From assembly GCF_024298765.1 (NCBI RefSeq), contig NZ_CP101210.1: a DNA stretch of 64,000 nucleotides. The stretch is one strand, 5' to 3'. Source of the stretch: Escherichia coli (GTDB lineage: Bacteria > Pseudomonadota > Gammaproteobacteria > Enterobacterales > Enterobacteriaceae). The notes under the pieces were generated by a model. The model was not told where the DNA came from and searched no databases. It saw nothing but the letters and a program-made list of their open reading frames with translations. A program made the position numbers and the translations under genes. Below are positions 1,876 through 18,592 of this stretch, piece by piece; positions within the stretch are counted from its first letter, which is position 1; each line of letters opens with the position of its first letter.

Positions 1876-2591
1876 TGGGACAGCGCGCGTGAACCTCTTT
1901 CGCGTGCGCTGTTGATCCACATCCGGCTGCCGTTGAGGGCAATAAAGGTCAGGATGATGTACTCCAGAGACATGGCGTAAACGCCCTGAAGTGCAAAAAT
2001 AACGACGCTAATCACGTTAATAATCACCCACAACAGCCAGTTTTCCACATACTTACGCGTCATCAGAATCATTGCCACGATAGATAACACCATCATGCAT
2101 GAATCCCAGAACGGGAAAGCGTCCGGCTGTAGTTCAGGCATCGCAACCTGTAATCCTAATGCTTGCATGATCATGACTGCCACGCGGGTCAAAAATGCAA
2201 ACACCGGATTGATAAATACTGTCATCAGACCAATCGAAACAACGCAAACCGCTAACCAGCTTAGCGCCTTCGGCAATGGCAACCAGCGAATTTTCAACTC
2301 CGCCTCGTTCTGACTGGTTTGTCGCGACCACGCATACCAGCCGTAAATATTCGCGGCAAAGAAAAACACCTGTAATAGCAGGCTGGCATACAGCTGAATC
2401 TGAAAGAAAATAATGCCAAACAAGGTGACGTTGATCAGGCCAAAGAAGTAGTTGCTGATCTTCTCCAGACTGGCAAGGCCAATACACAGCAACCCGGCGA
2501 TCGTGCCTACCGCTTCGATCCATGAGAGATCATAACCGCCTGCACCTATTGGTATATGTACCAGGATATTCTGCACACTAAAAAAATCCAT
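1872..2591 (-). CDS. pnuC: Nicotinamide riboside transporter PnuC
   Basis: 239-aa polytopic membrane ORF directly downstream of nadA; 3' end overlaps the zitB stop by 4 nt (convergent). Confidence 0.93.
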
Positions 2592-2628
2592 CTTTCCCCC
2601 AAAGCGTAACGTTACGCCTTATTATTCG

Positions 2629-3672
2629 TTATCCACGTAGTGTAGCCGCAAAATCCAGCATACGATTGAGCGGCACCAGCGCCCTCTCTCGCAGCCTTTC
2701 ATCAACATGAACCTCGTGATTGCTTCCTTCCTGTTCTAATGCCTCTGCGATGGCCTGAAGGCCATTCATGGCCATCCACGGACAATGCGCGCAGCTGCGG
2801 CAGGTTGCACCCTCACCCGCGGTTGGTGCTTCCAGTAACTCTTTATCTGGCACCGCCTGCTGCATTTTGTAGAAAATGCCCCGATCGGTTGCCACGATAA
2901 GCCGCTGATGTGGCAATGTTTTCGCAGCAGCGATCAGTTGACTGGTGGAACCGACCGCATCCGCCATATCGACAATAGCTTGTGGTGATTCTGGATGCAC
3001 CAGTATGGCAGCATCCGGGTATTCTTCTTGCAAGCGGGTTAACGCCTGAGTCTTAAATTCATCATGCACAATGCAGGCACCCTGCCAGCATAAAATGTCT
3101 GCGCCCGTCTGTTTTTGCACGTAACGCCCCAGATGTTTGTCGGGTGCCCAGATGATTTTTTCACCCAAACTATCCAGATGATCAATAAGTTCGACGGCAA
3201 TGCTTGAAGTTACCACCCAATCTGCGCGCGCTTTTACCGCAGCAGAAGTGTTGGCGTAGACGACGACAGTACGATCGGGATGGGCATCGCAAAATGCGTT
3301 AAATTCTTCAACAGGGCAGCCGAGATCCAGTGAACATTCAGCCTGAAGTGTCGGCATCAGAATTGTTTTTTCCGGACTGAGAATTTTGGCGGTTTCTCCC
3401 ATAAATCTCACCCCAGCGACTAATAACGTAGAAGCGGGATGCTTTGCACCGAAGCGCGCCATTTCCAGAGAATCAGAAATACAGCCACCGGTTTCTTCTG
3501 CCAGTTGTTGAATTTCGGGATCGGTATAGTAGTGGGCAACCATCACCGCATTACGTTCTTTTAGCAGACGTTTTATCTTCTCACGGTAATACGCTTTTTC
3601 ATCAATGCTTAACGGCGTCGGCTTCGGGGGGAAAGGATAAATCGCCGTGTCTGGATCAAACATCACGCTCAT
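2629..3672 (-). CDS. nadA: Quinolinate synthase A
   Basis: 347-aa ORF with conserved Cys ligands ([10 protein letters not shown] region) of the NadA 4Fe-4S family. Confidence 0.95.
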
Positions 3673-3744
3673 CTTACCATCTCGTTTTACAGGCTTAACG
3701 TTAAAACCGACATGAGCGTAATATTCGCTGTTATCGGTGAAATT

Positions 3745-7699: not shown

Positions 7700-8989
7700 T
7701 TACGGTTTGAAGTCCAATGGCGCGTTTTTGAACACTTCATATACTGCCTGGCTTGGTGGTTTCGGGATCTTCGCAAGTTTAGCTGCTGCCAACGCAGCTT
7801 GACAAAGTGCGGGATCGCCACCTTCAGGTTTGATATCCAGTAACATACCATCGGGTGCCAGTTTTATGCGCAGCGTACAGGTTTTGCCTGCATAGGACGA
7901 TGCGTCATAGAACTTACTTTCGATAGCAGATTTAATCTGCCCGGCATAGTTATTGATATCGGCCCCTGATGCGCCATTGTTTTTAGTATTACCACTCCCG
8001 GCAGGCGAAGCATTGTTCCCTTTCGCCCCTCCCCCCGTTTTCGGTGCATTCTTACCAGAGCTTAGCTCACCGAAAATATCATCTGCCTCTGCGGCAGCTT
8101 TTGCTGCAGCGGCTTTTTCAGCTGCTGCTTTTGCCGCTGCCGCTTTTTTGTCTGCGGCGGCTTTTTCTGCCGCTGCTTTCTTATCAGCTGCTGCCTTTTC
8201 AGCAGCCGCTTTTTCTGCTGCTTTTTTGTCGGCTGCCGCTTTCTCTGCTGCCGCTTTCTTATCAGCTGCAGCCTTTTCAGCAGCCGCTTTCTTCTCAGCT
8301 TCTGCCTTGGCTTTTTCAGCAGCTTCGGTTGCCGCTTTCTTTCTTGCTTCAGCTGCAGCTGCTTCTGTCGCTTCAGCTTTCTTCTTCAGCGCCGCAGCAG
8401 CAGCCTCGGCTTTTTTCTGCGCTTCGACTGCGGCTTTGGCGGCTTCTGCTTCTGCTTTTTTCTTCGCGTCTGCCGCCGCTTTCTTCGCTGCTTCTTCCGC
8501 AGCTTTAGCATCCGCTTCGGCCTTCGCTTTAGCATCCGCTTCGGCCTTCGCTTTAGCATCTGCCGCCGCTTTCGCTGCCGCCTCTTCCGCTTGCTTCTGC
8601 TTTAACTCGGCCTGTTTTGCGGCTTCTTCAGCCTGCTTTTTCTGCTCCTGAGCCGCTAACCGCTCTTTCTCAAGTTGCTTCAGGCGTTCCTGTTCAGCCG
8701 CTTGTTTCTCACGCAGTTCTTCAGCAGCCTGCTGCTCCTTCATCTTGCGCTGCTCATCAGAACGCTTCGCGCTTGATTCCTGGCTTTGCATACGTTTGTA
8801 CTGCTCAACTACCGCACCTGAATCAACCATGACAGCGTCGATGGACGAACCACCGCCGCCTCCGGCTGAAGCTTCTATATTCTCATCGAACGAACTCCAG
8901 ATCAGCGCCGCAAATAAGATGACATGCAGCACTGCTGAAATAATTATCGCCCGCTTGAGCTTGTCGTTTTGTTCGGTTGCCTTTGACAC
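7700..8989 (-). CDS. tolA: Tol-Pal system protein TolA
   Basis: N-terminal TM anchor, long Ala/Lys/Glu-rich helical domain II, conserved C-terminal domain III; 429 aa. Confidence 0.93.
   Translation of the reverse strand: MSKATEQNDKLKRAIIISAVLHVILFAALIWSSFDENIEASAGGGGGSSIDAVMVDSGAVVEQYKRMQSQESSAKRSDEQRKMKEQQAAEELREKQAAEQERLKQLEKERLAAQEQKKQAEEAAKQAELKQKQAEEAAAKAAADAKAKAEADAKAKAEADAKAAEEAAKKAAADAKKKAEAEAAKAAVEAQKKAEAAAAALKKKAEATEAAAAEARKKAATEAAEKAKAEAEKKAAAEKAAADKKAAAEKAAADKKAAEKAAAEKAAADKKAAAEKAAADKKAAAAKAAAEKAAAAKAAAEADDIFGELSSGKNAPKTGGGAKGNNASPAGSGNTKNNGASGADINNYAGQIKSAIESKFYDASSYAGKTCTLRIKLAPDGMLLDIKPEGGDPALCQAALAAAKLAKIPKPPSQAVYEVFKNAPLDFKP
8080..8620. repeat. Imperfect tandem coding repeats in tolA domain II
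   Basis: Directly repeated units, e.g. the 24-nt unit gcatccgcttcggccttcgctttagca repeated in tandem at about 8510-8560, encoding A/K/E/D repeats. Confidence 0.8.
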
Positions 8990-11149: not shown

Positions 11150-12289
11150 TTAGTACAGAGAGTGGGTGTTACGTTCAATATCTTCTTTGGTGATACGACC
11201 GAACATTTTCCAGTAACACCAGGCGGTGTAGAGCAGAATGATCGGTACCAGAACCACCGCAACCCAGGTCATGACGTTAAGCGTCAGCTGGCTGGAAGTT
11301 GCATCCCACATTGTCAGACTTGCGTTCATCATGGTGCTGGACGGCATCACAAACGGGAACATTGCGATACCGGCAGTCAGGATGATGCAGGCCAGCGTCA
11401 GGGAGGAGAACACAAACGCCCACGCGGCTTTATCCATACGTGCAGTCAGGATGGTCAGCAGCGGCAGAACCACACCCAGTGCCGGAATAGCCCACAGAAT
11501 TGGCGTGTTGTTGAAGTTAACCAGCCATGCGCCAGCTTCACGAACCACTTCTTTATTCAGCGGGTTAGAGGCTGCGTAATGGTCCATTGTCGATTTCACG
11601 ACATAACCATCGATACCGTACATCACCCATACGCCAGCCAGTGCGAAGCAGACCAGCGTCACCAGTGCCGCCACCTGAGCCGTTGCACGGGTACGCAGGT
11701 GCAGTTCGCCCACGGTACGCATTTGCAGATAGGTTGCGCCCTGAGTAATGATCATCCCTACGCTCACCACACCTGCCAGCAGGCCGAACGGGTTAAGCAG
11801 CTGGAAGAAGTTACCGGTGTAGTACAGACGCAGATATTCATCAACGTTGAATGGTACGCCCTGCAACAGGTTACCGAACGCTACACCAATCACCAGCGGC
11901 GGAACGAAGCTACCAATGAAGATGCCCCAGTCCCACATGTTACGCCAGCGGGTTTCTTCAATCTTGGAGCGGTAATCAAAACCGACCGGACGGAAGAACA
12001 AAGACGCCAGCACGAGGATCATCGCCACATAGAAGCCGGAGAACGCAGCGGCATAGACCATCGGCCAGGCAGCAAACAGTGCGCCGCCTGCGGTGATCAG
12101 CCAAACCTGGTTACCGTCCCAGTGTGGTGCGATGGAGTTAATCATAATTCGACGCTCGGTGTCGTTACGACCGAGGAAACGGGTGAGCATGCCCACCCCC
12201 ATGTCGAAACCGTCAGTGACTGCAAAACCAATCAGCAGAACGCCAACCAGCAGCCACCAGATAAAACGCAATACTTCATAATCGATCAT
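11150..12289 (-). CDS. cydB: Cytochrome bd-I ubiquinol oxidase subunit II
   Basis: 379-aa polytopic membrane ORF downstream of cydA. Confidence 0.95.
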   Translation of the reverse strand: MIDYEVLRFIWWLLVGVLLIGFAVTDGFDMGVGMLTRFLGRNDTERRIMINSIAPHWDGNQVWLITAGGALFAAWPMVYAAAFSGFYVAMILVLASLFFRPVGFDYRSKIEETRWRNMWDWGIFIGSFVPPLVIGVAFGNLLQGVPFNVDEYLRLYYTGNFFQLLNPFGLLAGVVSVGMIITQGATYLQMRTVGELHLRTRATAQVAALVTLVCFALAGVWVMYGIDGYVVKSTMDHYAASNPLNKEVVREAGAWLVNFNNTPILWAIPALGVVLPLLTILTARMDKAAWAFVFSSLTLACIILTAGIAMFPFVMPSSTMMNASLTMWDATSSQLTLNVMTWVAVVLVPIILLYTAWCYWKMFGRITKEDIERNTHSLY

Positions 12290-12304
12290 TTGACGACTCC
12301 TGTC

Positions 12305-13873
12305 TTAGCGTGCCGGCTGAGTAGTCGTGGAAGACTGCTCAAAGTGATAGCGACCGGTTTTCAGGCTGCTTGGGCCGAGGCGTGCAAACTTGAACATTAA
12401 GAACAATTCTGCCACCAGGAACAGGGTATACAGGCCGCAAATCAGCACCATTGAGAAGATGAGATCGCCTGCGGTCAGTGACGAATTCGCCACAGCTGTC
12501 GGCAGCACTTCACCGATAGCCCACGGTTGGCGGCCATATTCAGCCACGAACCAGCCCGCTTCTACAGCAATCCACGGCAGCGGAATACCGTACAGCGCGG
12601 CGCGCAGCAGCCATTTTTTCTCGCCAATGCGGTTGCGGATGACACTCCAGAAAGAGAGCGCAATGATTGCCAGCAGCAGGAAGCCACACGCCACCATGAT
12701 ACGGAACGCGAAGTACAGCGGCGCTACACGCGGAATGGAGTCTTTGGTTGCCTGTTGAATCTGAGCTTCAGTCGCATCAGCCACGTTTGGCGTATAGCGT
12801 TTCAGCAGCAGACCGTAACCGAGATCTTTCTTCATGCTATTGAACTGGTCACGAACGGCCTGGTCAGTAGAACCAGAACGCAGTTGTTCGAGCAGAGAGT
12901 ACGCCTTCATCCCGTTACGAATGCGTTCTTCATGCTGCACCATCAGTTCTTTCAGGCCGATAACTGGAGTATCCACGGAACGCGTTGCAATGATGCCCAG
13001 CGCGTAAGGGATCTGGATCGCAAATTTGTTCGTCTCCTCTTCCTGATCAGGAATGCCGAACAGAGTAAAGGCAGCAGGTGCAGGTTGCGTTTCCCACTCG
13101 GCTTCGATAGCAGCCAGTTTGGTTTTCTGCACGTCGCCCATTTCGTAACCGGATTCATCACCCAGAACAATAACAGACAGAACGGCAGCCATACCGAAGC
13201 TGGCAGCGATAGCAAAGGAGCGTTTAGCGAAGGCGAAGTCACGACCTTTCAGCATATACCATGCGCTGATACCGAGGATGAACATTGCGCCAGTCACATA
13301 ACCAGAAGCTACGGTGTGAACGAATTTCACCTGAGCAACCGGGTTAAGCACCAGCTCGGAGAAGCTCACCATCTCCATACGCATAGTTTCAAAGTTGAAA
13401 TCGGACGCGATTGGGTTTTGCATCCAGCCGTTTGCAACCAGAATCCACAGTGCGGACAGGTTTGAACCGAGCGCCACCAGCCAGGTGACACACATATGCT
13501 GAACTTTACCCAGACGATCCCAACCGAAGAAGAACAGACCTACAAAGGTGGATTCGAGGAAGAAGGCCATCAGACCTTCGATTGCCAGCGGCGCACCGAA
13601 GATATCCCCTACATAGTGGGAATAGTAAGACCAGTTAGTCCCGAACTGGAACTCCATGGTCAGACCGGTAGCCACACCCAGAGCAAAGTTGATACCAAAC
13701 AACTTGCCCCAGAACTTGGTCATATCTTTATAAATCTGTTTGCCGGAAAGAACGTAGACCGTTTCCATAATGGCCAGCAGGAACGCCATACCGAGCGTCA
13801 GTGGCACAAAAAGGAAGTGGTACATCGCGGTCAAGGCAAACTGTAAGCGCGACAGTTCGACTATATCTAACAT
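12305..13873 (-). CDS. cydA: Cytochrome bd-I ubiquinol oxidase subunit I
   Basis: 522 aa from the second Met ([28 protein letters not shown]), with the Q-loop region. Confidence 0.95.
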
Positions 13874-14450
13874 CATGACTCCTTGCTCATCGCATGAAGA
13901 CTCCGAGAGTGAACCCCGTTAGAAAGGGTCACACGCATGCCCCAATACAAAATTATTTGCTCGCCTCTATCGTTGCCATTTCATCAAAAGAGGAAAAGAC
14001 AATGATAAAAAAGTTACAAATGTGTTAATGAATAAACCAAATTGATCCCGTAATTATATTACGCCGCAAAATCCTTACAATAAACAGGTTTTTATTGAGC
14101 AAATTTGCATTTTTCGACAGTGATCAATTTATAGCGAAATTGTCACGATCTCACCAATTTGATCTACAACAATTTATCGTGTTTTGCAGATTTTTTTCAA
14201 GAATTAAAAATTGATTTATATCAAAATCAACCATATATGTTAATTATGTGTGAATCATGAGCCACTGGTAACTTTATTGTTAATTTATTGTAACAAAATA
14301 GCACAGTAAAATTACCCACATGGAAATATATAGATAAAAAACCAGTATTTTATTTAACAGAGCCGCTTTATCGACTTTTTATAATACTAATTAGTTAGAG
14401 TAGCTACTTTATTGCCATTTTACATAACATATTTTTATCAACGTTAATTG
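13874..14450 (-). promoter_or_regulatory. cydA upstream regulatory region (complex promoter, expected FNR/ArcA/H-NS control)
   Basis: Long AT-rich non-coding leader upstream of cydA; individual sites not resolved by eye. Confidence 0.45.
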
Positions 14451-15201
14451 ATTGTTGTCTTTATGAGCAACGTACTGTAAATCCGTCACTTATTGTTTCA
14501 TTGGTAATAATCACAAGAAGAAATAGATACCTTAGGTATAGTCAGATGGAACAAGGATTTTCAAAATAAAATATATATGGTATTAATATTTCCCGATCTG
14601 TATTCAATGATTAGCTCAAAGATTGAAAATCAAGAGAAATTGTTATAGCAGTGATACGAAACAACAAAACGGAATGATTGCCAGCCGTTAGAAAACACCG
14701 GACACTCTCGTGTAAAAAGCTACCCTGTCTATGGATATAGCGATATCAACTCATCAAGCGTGGACTGAATGATATTCAGCTCCATATGGGCGGCAACCTG
14801 GAGGATAAACATGATTTCGCCGTTGGAATCAAGGTTGTTCTGCAATATCTACCAGACTGCTTCAATTTATCTGTTTTGGCAGTGCCATAATCTTAATTTA
14901 ACTATTTGAAGATGATGATATTGTAAGATGCCAGAAATTTAGTAATCTGGAGAACCATGTTTACGATCACTAAATATTAAAGTAATAGTCGATAATTCAG
15001 TAACACATCGGGTAATATAATGTATTGATACATAATCATATTAAAAATTCGTGATTAAATAACATAAGAATATGTTTTATTATCATTAAAAAACCTTCTA
15101 TTTCCATCATCCTTAAGATAATAGAACAGTGAATGATGGATAACTTCACCAGAAAAACAAGCAAGAATATAAAATTTAAAAATATGATTCCACTTTCATT
15201 G

Positions 15202-16317
15202 TTATAAAATGGCATCGTGAAGAGCGAGTTGATAATACTGCAATGCATCAGCGTCCTGTCCAGCAGTTTCATAAATTTTGGCAATGTTATAATAGGAGTT
15301 AGCGCGCATTGTCGCCGCATTTGCTCCACTGGCTAACGAGATCGCTTTACGATTTGCCCAAATTGCTTCCGCGATGTTGCCATTTTTCTGATACGCCAGC
15401 CCCAGGTTACTAAATGCCTGTCCGTAATTGCCGTCTAATTCTGTTGCCTGTTGGAAGAGTTGAATGGCTTGCTCAAGTTGACCGGTTTTATAAACAGCTT
15501 CACCTTCGCGATTATATTTTCTTGCCAGTTGAGTATCTCCACTGTTTTGCATCGCAGGTGAAGCCGGAGTTGAAGAACCCGTCGCAGGCATTATCACAGT
15601 GGCTAAATCCCTGACGCCTAATGTGGTGTCGTTAAAATTGGCGCTGGTAACAGAGTTGATATCTTCAAACTCGCCGTTTGGATTGAGTTTAAACACGGTC
15701 CAGATGTTCCCTCGTTTTCCAGCAGGGACACTATAACTACGCACCAGGGAGCTCCCTACATAAACAAACACTTTTGCCTTACTGGCAGAGAGATAATTAC
15801 TGTTGGGCAACCCTTTGTTGCTATAGTCCTGCACGGCATAGATGTAACTTTCGCCAAAATGCTTTTTGCTGATAGTGACAGTTTCTGATCCATAGCTATC
15901 CGTATCATCAACATCCAGATTAGCATCAGTCCCCTCTTTACTATCAAAATAGATATGTCCGCCAGGGAAGATCAAATGTGAATCAAGATCAAAAGGCTTT
16001 TCGCCCCAGCTCAAAACTACACGCATGCCATCCAGACTAGTCATTGCCGGACTAATCGCATAAGTCATGCCAGCACACGAACATTTGACCACCAGATTAG
16101 AATAGCCCTCTTTTTTGACGATCAATAAAGCATCTTGATCATCAGCAAATGTAGAACCCAGATTAACGCTGCCCGATGCATTTGTGGTTCCAGAAACAGA
16201 TTGTGCGCCATTGCGTTGCAGCGTCACCGATACTCCCTCAATGCGTTTATCTTTCACTGTCGCACTTAAAATATCGATATTTACATCGGCCGCATAAACG
16301 TCCGAATTTACACCCAT
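15202..16317 (-). CDS. Hypothetical protein with C-terminal TPR repeats, probably secreted; occupies the position where K-12 has mngR-mngA-mngB
   Basis: 371-aa ORF; C-terminal TPR-like helices; in-frame upstream codons encode a Sec-signal-like segment (KKKIVLPVALALMGVNSDVYA/AD) with no ATG/GTG/TTG start, so the true start is uncertain. Confidence 0.6.
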   Translation of the reverse strand: MGVNSDVYAADVNIDILSATVKDKRIEGVSVTLQRNGAQSVSGTTNASGSVNLGSTFADDQDALLIVKKEGYSNLVVKCSCAGMTYAISPAMTSLDGMRVVLSWGEKPFDLDSHLIFPGGHIYFDSKEGTDANLDVDDTDSYGSETVTISKKHFGESYIYAVQDYSNKGLPNSNYLSASKAKVFVYVGSSLVRSYSVPAGKRGNIWTVFKLNPNGEFEDINSVTSANFNDTTLGVRDLATVIMPATGSSTPASPAMQNSGDTQLARKYNREGEAVYKTGQLEQAIQLFQQATELDGNYGQAFSNLGLAYQKNGNIAEAIWANRKAISLASGANAATMRANSYYNIAKIYETAGQDADALQYYQLALHDAIL

Positions 16318-16454
16318 CAGGGCCAGAGCAACCGGCAGAACAATTTTCTTCTTGTATAAATGCTTTTACAGAACGGAGAGGGGATATTTTGCCGGGCATT
16401 ATTGCGCAGAAGATGGGAGAAAAGCAGTGGGCAAACTTTTCAGATTAGTGCCCG

Positions 16455-16481
16455 AATAAAAAAGGCCATCATAAGATGGCC
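16455..16481 (-). terminator. Rho-independent terminator downstream of sucD
   Basis: Hairpin ggccatc-ataa-gatggcc followed on the transcribed strand by a U-run. Confidence 0.6.
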
Positions 16482-16556
16482 AACCATGTCGAAACCGACA
16501 GCCCTTCGCCCCTCCTGTAGAGGGAAGCGGCGAGGGCTATTTCTTATTACAGATAT

Positions 16557-17426
16557 TTATTTCAGAACAGTTTTCAGTGCTTCACCGATATCCGCCAGGC
16601 TGCGAACGGTTTTCACGCCTGCGGCTTCCAGAGCAGCGAATTTCTCATCCGCAGTCCCTTTACCACCGGCAATGATCGCACCTGCGTGACCCATACGTTT
16701 GCCTTTCGGCGCAGTCACACCAGCGATGTAACCCACAACTGGCTTGGTAACGTGCTCCTTGATGTACGCCGCTGCTTCTTCTTCAGCGCTACCGCCGATC
16801 TCACCGATCATCACGATCGCTTCGGTCTGCGGATCTTTTTCGAACATTTCGAGGATGTCGATAAAGTTAGAGCCAGGGATCGGGTCGCCGCCGATACCAA
16901 CGCAGGTCGACTGACCGAAACCGTAATCCGTGGTCTGTTTAACCGCTTCATAGGTCAGCGTACCGGAACGGGAAACGATACCCACTTTACCCGGTTTGTG
17001 AATGTGACCCGGCTGGATACCGATTTTGCATTCCCCCGGGGTGATAACGCCTGGGCAGTTCGGGCCGATCATACGAACGCCTGCTTCATCCAGTTTCACT
17101 TTCACCGTCAGCATATCCAGCGTCGGGATGCCTTCAGTGATGGTGATAATCAGTTTGATGCCTGCATCGATAGCTTCCAGAATGGAGTCTTTGCAGAACG
17201 GTGCTGGTACGTAGATAACAGAGGCGGTAGCGCCAGTAGCAGCAACAGCTTCACGCACGGTGTTGAACACTGGCAGGCCGAGGTGGGTAGTACCGCCTTT
17301 ACCTGGGGTTACGCCGCCAACCATTTTAGTGCCGTATGCAATGGCCTGTTCTGAGTGGAAAGTCCCCTGGCTACCGGTAAAGCCCTGGCAGATAACCTTG
17401 GTGTTTTTATCAATTAAAATGGACAT
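16557..17426 (-). CDS. sucD: Succinyl-CoA synthetase alpha subunit
   Basis: 289-aa ORF with CoA-binding and His-phosphorylation loop motifs. Confidence 0.96.
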
Positions 17427-18592
17427 TATTTCCCCTCCACTGCGGCAACAACCTGCTGAGCTGCATCCGTCAGACCTTTTGCTGCAATAATATTCAGGCC
17501 GCTGTCAGCCAGTTTCTTCGCGCCGAGTTCGGCGTTGTTACCTTCCAGACGTACCACGACCGGTACGTTAACACCCACTTCCGCTACCGCGCCGATGATA
17601 CCGTCAGCGATCAGGTCGCAACGAACGATACCGCCGAAGATGTTAACCAGAACGGCTTTCACTTTGTCGTCAGAGAGGATGATTTTGAACGCTTCGGTTA
17701 CACGTTCTTTGGTTGCGCCGCCGCCAACGTCCAGGAAGTTAGCTGGTTCGCCGCCGTGCAGTTTAACGATGTCCATGGTGCCCATCGCCAGGCCTGCGCC
17801 GTTAACCATACAACCGATGTTACCGTCCAGCGCAACGTAGTTCAGTTCCCACTGTGCAGCCTGTGCTTCACGCGGATCTTCCTGCGACTGGTCACGCATT
17901 TCGCGCAGATCAGGCTGGCGGAACAGTGCGTTGCCATCAGCGCCCAGTTTGCCGTCGAGGCAAATCAGATCGCCCTGTTTGGTAATGACCAGCGGGTTGA
18001 TTTCGATCAGCGCCAGGTCGCGCTCCAGGAAAATGGTCGCCAGGCCCATGAAGATTTTGGTGAACTGCTGAACCAGTTTACCTTCCAGACCCAGTTTGAA
18101 CGCCAGCTCGCGTCCCTGATACGGCATCGGGCCAGTCAGCGGATCAAGCGCAACTTTGTGGATCAGGTGCGGAGTTTCTTCCGCCACTTTTTCAATTTCC
18201 ACGCCGCCTTCGGTGGAGGCCATAAAGACCACACGACGGGAACTACGGTCAACAACGGCACCGAGATACAGCTCTTTAGCGATATCGGTCGCTGCTTCAA
18301 CCAGAATCTGGTTAACCGGTTGGCCATTGGCATCTGTTTGATACGTTACCAGACGCTTGCCCAGCCAGTTTTCTGCAAAAGCACGGATGTCTTCTTTGCT
18401 GTTTACCACTTTCACACCGCCCGCTTTACCGCGGCCACCAGCGTGAACCTGACATTTCACTACCCACGGACCGGCACCGATTTTTGAAGCGGCTTCTTCT
18501 GCTTCGCGCGGAGTAGTACAGGCATAACCCACCGGTGCTGGTAAGCCATAGCGGGCAAAAAGTTGTTTTGCCTGATATTCATGTAAGTTCAT
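17426..18592 (-). CDS. sucC: Succinyl-CoA synthetase beta subunit
   Basis: 388-aa ATP-grasp ORF; stop overlaps the sucD start. Confidence 0.96.

Follow-up and report, generated by a model that had tools for sequence, protein, structure and literature searches.

We analysed the interval between sucD and cydA in the window, i.e. the whole stretch of 64,000 nucleotides of Escherichia coli DNA under study, in which the locus lies in reverse orientation. On the minus strand lie, in this order, cydB (11150-12289), cydA (12305-13876), an ORF of 371 aa (15202-16317) and sucD (16557-17426). The sucD-cydA interval (13877-16556) measures 2,680 bp vs 6,408 bp in K-12 MG1655 (765050-771457), where it contains sdhX, mngR, mngA and mngB; in the window it contains the 371-aa ORF and 1.3 kb of AT-rich DNA, and mngR-mngA-mngB is absent. 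When the K-12 sucB-cydB region was compared by BLASTN with positions 12301-17500, alignments were confined to the sucD/sdhX and cydA sides and included nothing of mngRAB. GC content is 27-40 % over 13800-15300, whereas the flanking genes reach 51-58 %. Many complete E. coli genomes have the interval at 100 % identity, and PGAP there labels the ORF 'tetratricopeptide repeat protein' (WP_000538731.1). The following features were retained.

12305..13876, minus strand: cydA, cytochrome bd-I subunit I, right boundary (ORF; annotation in an identical genome)
13877..14514, minus strand: conserved cydAB upstream region (comparison with other genomes, promoter scan)
14515..15201, no strand: AT-rich spacer, common to ST131-type genomes (sequence comparison)
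14720..14821, plus strand: decayed glmS relic (methylaspartate mutase S subunit, residues 69-102) with an in-frame stop (tblastn, BLASTN)
15202..16317, minus strand: 371-aa ORF, PGAP WP_000538731.1 (ORF list, PGAP, alignments)
15202..15543, minus strand: TPR region, residues 271-383, three motifs, capping helix missing in the window (Pfam, model, Foldseek)
15220..15226, minus strand: junction of a 259-bp deletion relative to the ST131-type sequence (BLAST map, alignment)
15646..16026, minus strand: domain 2, residues 110-236, YfaP/DUF2135-like beta-sandwich of TerD fold
16054..16287, minus strand: domain 1, ancestral residues 23-100, putative transthyretin-like / CarboxypepD_reg beta-sandwich with a C-P-C motif
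16291..16353, minus strand: remnant of the signal-peptide coding sequence, KKKIVLPVALALMGVNSDVYA, cleaved before ADV (translations)
16351..16353, minus strand: former start codon, now AAG, ATG in intact alleles (alignments)
16361..16365, minus strand: degenerate Shine-Dalgarno AAGCA, AAGGA in the intact ST131 and SCU-172 alleles (alignments)
16368..16455, minus strand: junction from the SdhX terminator to the leader of the TPR gene (BLAST map, MAFFT alignment, junction strings)
16456..16556, minus strand: SdhX small RNA, from the sucD 3' UTR (alignment to K-12 ncRNA sdhX, b4764)
16557..17426, minus strand: sucD, succinyl-CoA synthetase alpha subunit, left boundary (ORF; sucD annotation in an identical genome)

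A preliminary description of this DNA, made from the sequence alone, had reported an interval of about 2.7 kb lacking mngRAB, with about 1.3 kb of AT-rich DNA, and the comparisons above bear out both points. The two findings that it had named as able to overturn it, an ORF derived from mngA or mngB and an interval identical to that of K-12, were also excluded by BLASTN, since the ORF has no similarity to mngA, mngB or mngR and only the two sides of the interval align. The minus-strand orientation of the ORF, its truncated state, SdhX, the cydAB upstream region and the glmS relic had gone unnoticed.

SdhX occupies the first 101 nt after sucD, with 3 differences from K-12 sdhX and an intrinsic terminator hairpin at 16464-16481. 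It was found by alignment to the K-12 annotation, as an Rfam scan of 13500-17000 returned no match at E<=1. Homology to mngRAB-containing genomes ends right after CCTTTTTTAT and restarts, strongly diverged, at TAATCTGAAAAGT. No promoter-like site was found by scanning the minus strand between the SdhX terminator and the ORF. Repeats in the interval were limited to short two-copy matches of the kind expected by chance, without mobile-element scars, and the PADLOC anti-phage defence models gave no family at E<=0.01.

The AT-rich DNA consists of two parts. One is probably what was left after loss of a methylaspartate-pathway island, to which the glmS relic testifies (tblastn E 3e-6, 54 % identity; BLASTN 76 % identity over 72 nt with glmS of SCU-172). 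This island fills the position of the spacer in SCU-172 (14.8 kb) and in O157:H7 (~11-12 kb), the latter, unlike SCU-172, without the hyp1/RtcB-fragment segment; the spacer had no plasmid match. The other part is the conserved cydAB upstream region, i.e. ~640 bp of AT-rich DNA whose proximal ~380 bp (13877-14255) are also common to K-12 and whose best predicted sigma-70-like site lies at 14053-14080. The cydAB regulatory region is known to be long and AT-rich. The K-12-specific 496 bp between mngB and cydA showed no significant similarity to the TPR island.

To place the window interval among its relatives, 5,426 complete genomes were surveyed. The K-12 type was found in 3,174 of them, the methylaspartate island type in 1,132, the order sucD-mngR-mngA-mngB-TPR-cydA with an intact TPR gene in 566 (ST131 included) and the window type in 546. 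The window interval is therefore one of four common states of a hypervariable sucD/sdhX-cydA locus, and the strain variability announced in the preliminary description is confirmed. In other lineages of E. coli, this hot spot accommodates two kinds of cargo. One is the mannosylglycerate cassette mngR-mngA-mngB; the other is the glutamate-fermentation (methylaspartate/mesaconate) island of O157:H7, of which the window keeps a glmS relic. Neither has any sequence in common with the TPR gene, and both can adjoin it as independent cargo (mngRAB in ST131-type genomes, the island in SCU-172). MngRAB has been reported missing from B2 sequence types other than ST131 (PMC9836092).

The earlier wording, in which the TPR gene stands 'instead of' mngRAB, proved misleading, as the two lie side by side in 566 complete genomes. 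Replacement of mngR-mngA-mngB by the TPR gene as an alternative, horizontally transferred cassette would agree with an interval devoid of mngRAB and of lower GC than its flanks, with the unusual divergence of the TPR alleles (dS 0.22 between the window and ST131, whereas the flanks differ by just 2-3 %) and with the 12-nt direct repeat GATGGCCTTTTT that flanks mngRAB in ST131-type genomes, a repeat that is compatible with insertion or deletion of the mng block. We nevertheless hold such a swap to be highly improbable: besides the co-occurrence in 566 genomes, Pseudocitrobacter has the order sucD-TPR-mngR-mngA-mngB, Pectobacterium and Enterobacter have sucD-TPR-cydA without mngRAB, and O157:H7 has neither mngRAB nor the TPR gene but a third cassette. 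With orthologues at the same sucD-cydA position in Pectobacterium and Enterobacter, the TPR gene is an old resident of the locus, and mngRAB, found next to it in the 566 genomes and in Pseudocitrobacter, is a cassette independent of it. The window lineage was initially read as having lost mngRAB by deletion; this was dropped as unproven, since the Pectobacterium and Enterobacter orthologues make sucD-TPR-cydA an old arrangement.

The intact form of the protein has 397 aa. Its signal peptide precedes a putative transthyretin-like domain and a YfaP/DUF2135-like beta-sandwich of TerD fold; a linker then leads to three TPRs, which end in a capping helix. Pfam recognises the tandem 34-residue helix-turn-helix repeats over residues 278-380 of the intact form (TPR_11, E 2.3e-9; TPR_12, E 5.8e-8), and the AlphaFold2 model (pLDDT 89.7) has an all-beta N-terminal half followed by paired helices at residues 271-396. 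Both agree with the C-terminal TPRs and the beta-rich N-terminal half noted earlier from the translation, and the window ORF yields the same NCBIfam TPR-type matches as the intact form. Foldseek matched the C-terminal 125 residues to 3-TPR modules, e.g. CTPR3 and Hop TPR2A, with TM-scores of up to 0.9 relative to the target. The fold of three TPRs with a solvating helix is that of the peptide-binding modules of designed CTPR3, Hop TPR2A and SGT, which have a capping helix; in the window allele this helix is deleted. Pfam and NCBIfam gave generic TPR matches only, with no NCBIfam model at its curated cut-off: MamA, PilW, Tgl, BatC and NlpI appeared as sub-threshold NCBIfam matches (best 32 bits vs a cut-off of 200). 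The bacterial periplasmic TPR proteins compared were PilW, Tgl, BatC, NlpI and CpoB/YbgF.

An initial homologue search returned near-identical E. coli sequences only and no distant relatives; an exhaustive search using the N-terminal module gave > 5,000 cluster representatives with this module. Domain 2, with its conserved motifs W..DLDSH and LDVDDT..GPET, is homologous to the C-terminal DUF2135 of YfaP (E. coli b2225, in the operon of the alpha-2-macroglobulin-like yfaS): the family profile aligned to YfaP with an hhalign probability of 96.7 % (E 4.4e-10, 28 % identity, 109 columns), BLASTP gave E 1e-8, and the motifs (L/M)R(L/V)VLSW...DLD(S/L)H and LD(V/M)D..(S/T)GYGPE are common to both. 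In JGI the protein is named 'YfaP (DUF2135...)'. Domain 2 stayed unmatched, also by the DUF2135 model, when the protein and 21 homologues were scanned with Pfam-A, so that by sequence comparison the protein is a remote relative of DUF2135 and no member by the Pfam threshold. YfaP differs in having no TPR module and in being encoded in the yfaS operon, whereas the TPR gene stands alone. The beta-sandwich fold is shared with the TerD-family calcium-binding proteins (Streptomyces SCO6318, PDB 2qz7; Klebsiella TerD, PDB 2kxt), which have only 16 % sequence identity and are cytoplasmic, in contrast to the secreted product of the TPR gene. At the sequence level, no PDB sequence came up at E<=10 when a profile of the N-terminal module was used as query, and there was no Pfam TerD match.

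As the preliminary description had presumed, the protein is uncharacterised: searches of the literature on the protein accessions, on DUF2135/YfaP and on the locus found no functional study. The neighbourhoods of three distant homologues had no neighbours in common, and neither cydA nor sucD was found near non-enterobacterial homologues; gene context thus gives no functional hint outside Enterobacterales. Guessing from the modelled fold, the intact protein is most likely a periplasmic or envelope adaptor. Its two beta-sandwich domains would recognise a ligand, perhaps with Ca2+ dependence as in TerD, and a protein or peptide partner would dock on its 3-TPR module. That it should be an envelope factor tied to its conserved neighbours, e.g. 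one that assists cytochrome bd-I in the periplasm as an accessory or in quality control, is a long shot. If true, this would explain the kept sucD-cydA position from Pectobacterium to Escherichia, and the contrast between an intact gene in pandemic ST131 and its decay in ST73/ST95-type B2 lineages would contribute to fitness differences between lineages.

Alignment with intact alleles revealed that the start of the 371-aa ORF corresponds to Met13 of the ancestral 397-aa precursor, within the former signal peptide, and that the ORF ends in a new tail, LHDAIL*. Intact ST131-type and SCU-172 alleles read AAGGA-N8-ATG where the window, CFT073, NC101 and DS566-1 read AAGCA-N8-AAG. At least 433 of the 546 window-type genomes match the 57-nt start region at 100 % identity, and no ATG, GTG or TTG occurs between the upstream stop codon and position 16317. 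All Pseudocitrobacter, Enterobacter and Pectobacterium orthologues have a Shine-Dalgarno sequence and an ATG or GTG start. The intact signal peptide, predicted from translations, reads MKKIVLPVALAL(L/M)G...AYA and is cleaved before A; a hydrophobic, signal-like N-terminal segment was present in 25/25 family members. Initiation at Met13 leaves MGVNSDVYA, with no charged n-region and no hydrophobic core, and the window allele has no signal peptide behind a usable start codon, as taken here to be required for Sec export. Intact SCU-172 has the ATG at 16317 too, so this codon is no new start; in the sequence just before it (GCTCTGGCCCTG), no Shine-Dalgarno-like motif was found.

The 3' end is affected as well. 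The 259-bp deletion takes out codons 378-397, the stop codon, the terminator hairpin and ~190 bp beyond the hairpin, and its junction is found in 539 of the 546 window-type genomes. The deleted segment corresponds to the final helix of the model (residues 384-396), which holds the family-conserved Y..AI.R with a nearly invariant Y386. An origin of the deletion between exact CTGGCG repeats was considered and rejected, the match being only approximate and the predicted product 3 nt off the window sequence. The substitutions M1K (the start codon change), A41V, P92S (16078-16080) and P156S (15886-15888) all fall at family-invariant or nearly invariant positions. In sister strains, a TGG to TAG stop is found in CFT073 and DS566-1, where PGAP flags the gene as a pseudogene, and an IS1 insertion in AHB10. 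The dN/dS ratio was 0.11 between two intact alleles vs 0.37-0.88 among AAG-bearing alleles, the latter range being drawn from small counts (e.g. 4 synonymous vs 9 nonsynonymous differences).

From these data we propose, with a probability of about 0.8, that the window ORF is no longer functional and represents a decaying allele of a long-standing resident gene, whose intact product is a 397-aa Sec-exported protein. In the window lineage, initiation would have been destroyed by the changes of the Shine-Dalgarno (AAGGA to AAGCA) and of the start codon (ATG to AAG); whatever is made from the next ATG would be without signal peptide and stay in the cytoplasm; the 259-bp deletion would have stripped the conserved capping helix and the terminator; and the sequence would now be drifting. 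The single TPR-protein gene of the preliminary description is thus a genuine member of a TPR family, but one deprived of its start codon and 3' end, which cannot be called intact. Three observations speak against a pseudogene: PGAP calls the 371-aa ORF an intact CDS in most genomes, the frame is open over 1.1 kb in the sampled genomes except CFT073 and DS566-1, and dN/dS stays below 1 within the AAG clade.

The same observations, along with an allele structure common to 539 genomes, would favour a functional ORF as annotated, i.e. translation from the ATG at 16317 into a cytoplasmic beta-sandwich and TPR protein with a new role. This is improbable in our opinion: that ATG is the Met13 codon within a signal peptide, is shared with intact SCU-172 and has no Shine-Dalgarno-like motif upstream, substitutions hit invariant residues and the capping helix is gone, sister strains suffered independent nonsense and IS1 events, and every homologue has a signal peptide. 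The C-x-C motif also suggests an oxidising, extracytoplasmic setting. Low-level initiation at near-cognate codons occurs in E. coli, and it may take place here at AAG or at an in-frame ATT (codon 4), past which point the otherwise intact signal-peptide coding sequence would allow a little protein with an altered C-terminus to be secreted. We regard a residual function of such a leaky gene as very unlikely, given that the Shine-Dalgarno is mutated too, the deletion has removed the conserved helix at the C-terminus, P92S and P156S affect conserved positions and selection is apparently relaxed.

The window interval is ordinary strain variation at a known variable region, and the gene is already annotated in RefSeq; a decaying allele at such a locus is of little import for biology at large. 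Its interest lies in the four-state description of the sucD-cydA hot spot with its counts, in the pointer to a widespread secreted family (putative transthyretin-like domain, DUF2135/TerD-fold domain and three TPRs), for which the intact ST131 copy is available for study, and in a correction of annotation: ~540 complete E. coli genomes list as an intact CDS a 371-aa product without start codon, signal peptide and C-terminal helix. The intact gene of SCU-172 is also affected by annotation, its PGAP start being placed 12 codons too late.

The E. coli window lies in reverse orientation, and its sucD-cydA interval (13877-16556; 2,680 bp) is 100% identical in many complete E. coli chromosomes, e.g. 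strain 104 and APEC O78:H4 strains. The K-12 MG1655 counterpart measures 6,408 bp and contains sdhX, mngR, mngA and mngB. The following features were delimited.

11150-12289, minus: cydB (ORF list)
12305-13876, minus: cydA (ORF list)
13877-14514: cydAB upstream region, shared with SCU-172; 13877-14255 common to K-12 too
14515-15201: spacer common only to ST131-type genomes; a methylaspartate-pathway island stands there instead in SCU-172 and O157:H7
14720-14821, plus: glmS relic (methylaspartate mutase S subunit, residues 69-102; tblastn, nucleotide match)
15202-16317, minus: 371-aa ORF (ORF list), annotated by PGAP as "tetratricopeptide repeat protein" (WP_000538731.1) in identical genomes
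16351-16353, minus: former start codon, now AAG (nucleotide alignment)
16456-16556, minus: SdhX sRNA (sucD 3' UTR), 3 differences in 101 nt from K-12
16557-17426, minus: sucD (ORF list), with sucC, then sucB after it

When the K-12 region was used as BLASTN query, alignment was obtained at the sucD/sdhX side (97%) and at the cydA side from 14255 onward (95%), and no similarity to mngRAB was detected in the window. Together with the interval size and the fall in GC content to 27-40% over 13800-15300, this confirmed the preliminary description of a short interval devoid of mngRAB, carrying a single TPR ORF and AT-rich DNA; the same comparison showed that the ORF is not a fragment of mngA or mngB and that the interval differs from that of K-12.

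The locus was also said to be strain-variable, which held among 5,426 complete genomes screened with junction-spanning queries. Four states were counted: the K-12 type, i.e. mngRAB then cydA without the TPR gene (3,174 genomes); a methylaspartate/mesaconate island comprising glmS, glmL, mutE, methylaspartate ammonia-lyase, fumarase, symporter, cobO and LysR genes (1,132 genomes); mngRAB followed by an intact TPR gene (566 genomes); and the window type, in which the TPR leader is joined directly to the SdhX terminator (546 genomes). O157:H7 has the island and neither mngRAB nor the TPR gene. SCU-172, with the order sucD, intact TPR gene, 14.8-kb methylaspartate island and cydA, is an informative intermediate. 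The sucD-cydA interval is an ordinary strain-variable locus that was already documented, and the absence of mngRAB here is already known, since, of ten B2 sequence types, a pangenome study found mngA, mngB and mngR in ST131 alone (PMC9836092).

The proposal that the TPR gene stands instead of mngRAB had to be abandoned, as both coexist in ST131-type genomes: the mngB-TPR junction is at least 99% identical in all 566 genomes of that state, ST131 among them. In a scan of species-representative genomes, Enterobacter sp. BIGb0383 and three Pectobacterium species proved to have the TPR gene in their sucD-cydA interval, from which mngRAB is absent, while Pseudocitrobacter vendiensis shows the order sucD-TPR-mngR-mngA-mngB. 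These gene orders and the ST131 coexistence show that the TPR gene has long occupied this position in Enterobacterales and that mngRAB is a separate cassette, found on either side of it. TPR orthologues in several Enterobacterales hold the position directly after sucD, mngRAB lying downstream of the TPR gene in Pseudocitrobacter and upstream in ST131.

The ST131-type mng block is bracketed by a 12-nt direct repeat, GATGGCCTTTTT, one copy being the SdhX terminator and the other a terminator-like hairpin after mngB (reverse-complement ~2495-2506 and ~8030-8045 of the ST131-type locus from NZ_AP022032.1); the repeat could be the trace of either an insertion or a deletion of the cassette. Window and ST131 TPR alleles (window 15202-16353 vs 2515-3708 of the ST131-type locus L003) share 93% nucleotide identity with a dS of 0.22, whereas the flanks differ by 2-3%, an unusual divergence that suggests either long-standing polymorphism or recombinational import. 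ST131 mngRAB is likewise only 93% identical to that of K-12. Given 93% identity for the TPR gene and mngRAB against 97-98% for the sucD and cydA sides, the history of the central block reaches, as judged from these alignments, much further back than that of its flanks.

The window ORF, whose frame is still open, is best read as a pseudogene (probability about 0.8) derived from a 397-aa protein. This version (WP_000725054.1) was found in a second class of genomes that includes WP3-S18-ESBL-08, G749 and an O25b:H4-ST131 strain, and begins with a standard Sec signal peptide, MKKIVLPVALALLGMNAGAYA, cleaved before ADV. Nucleotide alignment revealed AAGGA-N8-ATG in the intact alleles (ST131-type and SCU-172) and AAGCA-N8-AAG in the window, CFT073, NC101 and DS566-1; the exact AAG/AAGCA start region occurs in at least 433 of the 546 window-type genomes. 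No ATG, GTG or TTG lies between the in-frame upstream stop and 16317, so that the annotated start is Met13, within the old signal peptide; because the intact SCU-172 allele has Met13 as well, this codon is no new compensating start. A Shine-Dalgarno sequence accompanies an ATG or GTG start codon in every one of the Pseudocitrobacter, Enterobacter and Pectobacterium orthologues.

A 259-bp segment of ST131-type genomes is missing from the 3' end of the window allele (BLASTN map, alignment), a deletion shared by 539 of 546 window-type genomes. It removes codons 378-397, the stop codon, the terminator hairpin and ~190 bp further, and the frame continues into a new tail, LHDAIL and a stop. In the AlphaFold2 model, the lost C-terminus is the final helix (residues 384-396); it holds a family-conserved motif in which Y386 is nearly invariant. 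Compared with both intact alleles, M1K, A41V, P92S (in the conserved C-P-C motif) and P156S (in the conserved GPET motif) affect family-invariant or nearly invariant positions. Sister strains carry further lesions, i.e. an extra TGG to TAG stop with a PGAP pseudogene flag in CFT073 and DS566-1, and an IS1 insertion in AHB10. Nei-Gojobori dN/dS was 0.11 between the SCU-172 and ST131 intact alleles vs 0.37-0.88 among AAG-bearing alleles, the latter from small counts and therefore supporting evidence, not proof. In the promoter scan, the stretch from the SdhX terminator (16464-16481) to the ORF contained no sigma-70-like site. Taken together, these features argue that WP_000538731.1 is very probably a wrongly annotated pseudogene, belonging to a secreted-protein family that is widespread yet uncharacterised. 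The window allele would be non-functional through loss of its initiation and export signals, with a TPR module presumably destabilised and a sequence probably drifting.

In SCU-172 (NZ_CP054353.1, L011 2548-3741), PGAP starts the TPR gene at an internal ATG (385 aa); an in-frame ATG further upstream, which has an AAGGA Shine-Dalgarno sequence, yields the full 397-aa precursor including the signal peptide, and the start should probably be placed 12 codons earlier than annotated. In AHB10 (NZ_OZ546984.1, L005 4084-5085), IS1B lies in the TPR pseudogene and sequence is missing up to ~490 bp before cydA, which consequently has a far shorter upstream region than in other strains.

Regarding the AT-rich DNA, cydAB is known for a long, AT-rich, multi-promoter regulatory region. 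In the window, the best promoter-like site of the cydAB upstream region was at 14053-14080. The ~100-bp glmS relic in the spacer (54% amino-acid identity, in-frame stop, tblastn E 3e-6, 76% nucleotide identity) points to an ancestor of the window and ST131 types in which the TPR gene was probably followed by the methylaspartate island, the order seen in SCU-172 today. It implies that a glutamate-fermentation island, still present in O157:H7 and SCU-172, formerly occupied the locus. The Rfam 15 scan returned no match for the SdhX interval at E<=1.

The preliminary description considered the protein uncharacterised, and our literature search indeed found no functional literature on it; PADLOC gave no match. 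The intact protein starts with a Sec signal peptide (A-x-A site of signal-peptidase I type), followed by two beta-sandwich domains and a C-terminus of three TPRs and a capping helix, of which Pfam recognises the TPRs only (residues 278-380). AlphaFold2 models were confident (pLDDT 89.7 full length, 93.5 for the N-terminal half). Among solved structures, CTPR3, Hop TPR2A and SGT come closest to the TPR module, and the capping helix of such 3-TPR modules is the one deleted in the window. At E<=0.001, an exhaustive search with residues 22-255 retrieved 5,517 cluster representatives. Many of them share this layout at a length of ~390 aa, and many are large surface proteins with domain 2, the YfaP/DUF2135-like beta-sandwich. 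The same architecture occurs in Pseudomonas, Lysobacter, Vibrio, Flavobacterium, Pectobacterium and Helicobacter, with no member named and varying neighbour genes.

Tentatively, the intact protein may be a periplasmic or envelope adaptor, in which conserved acidic loops of domain 2 (DLDSH, LDVDD..GPET) would bind a ligand, possibly Ca2+ as in TerD, and the TPR groove a partner peptide; we regard this model as possible but rather doubtful. A functional tie to cydAB and sucABCD, the conserved neighbourhood of the TPR gene, with relevance to ST131 versus other B2 lineages, is very improbable. Two tandem paralogues of the family (395 and 397 aa) occur in GCA_052426985.1 (L010 6001-8714), adjoining a giant Big_12-repeat protein of >3,600 aa.
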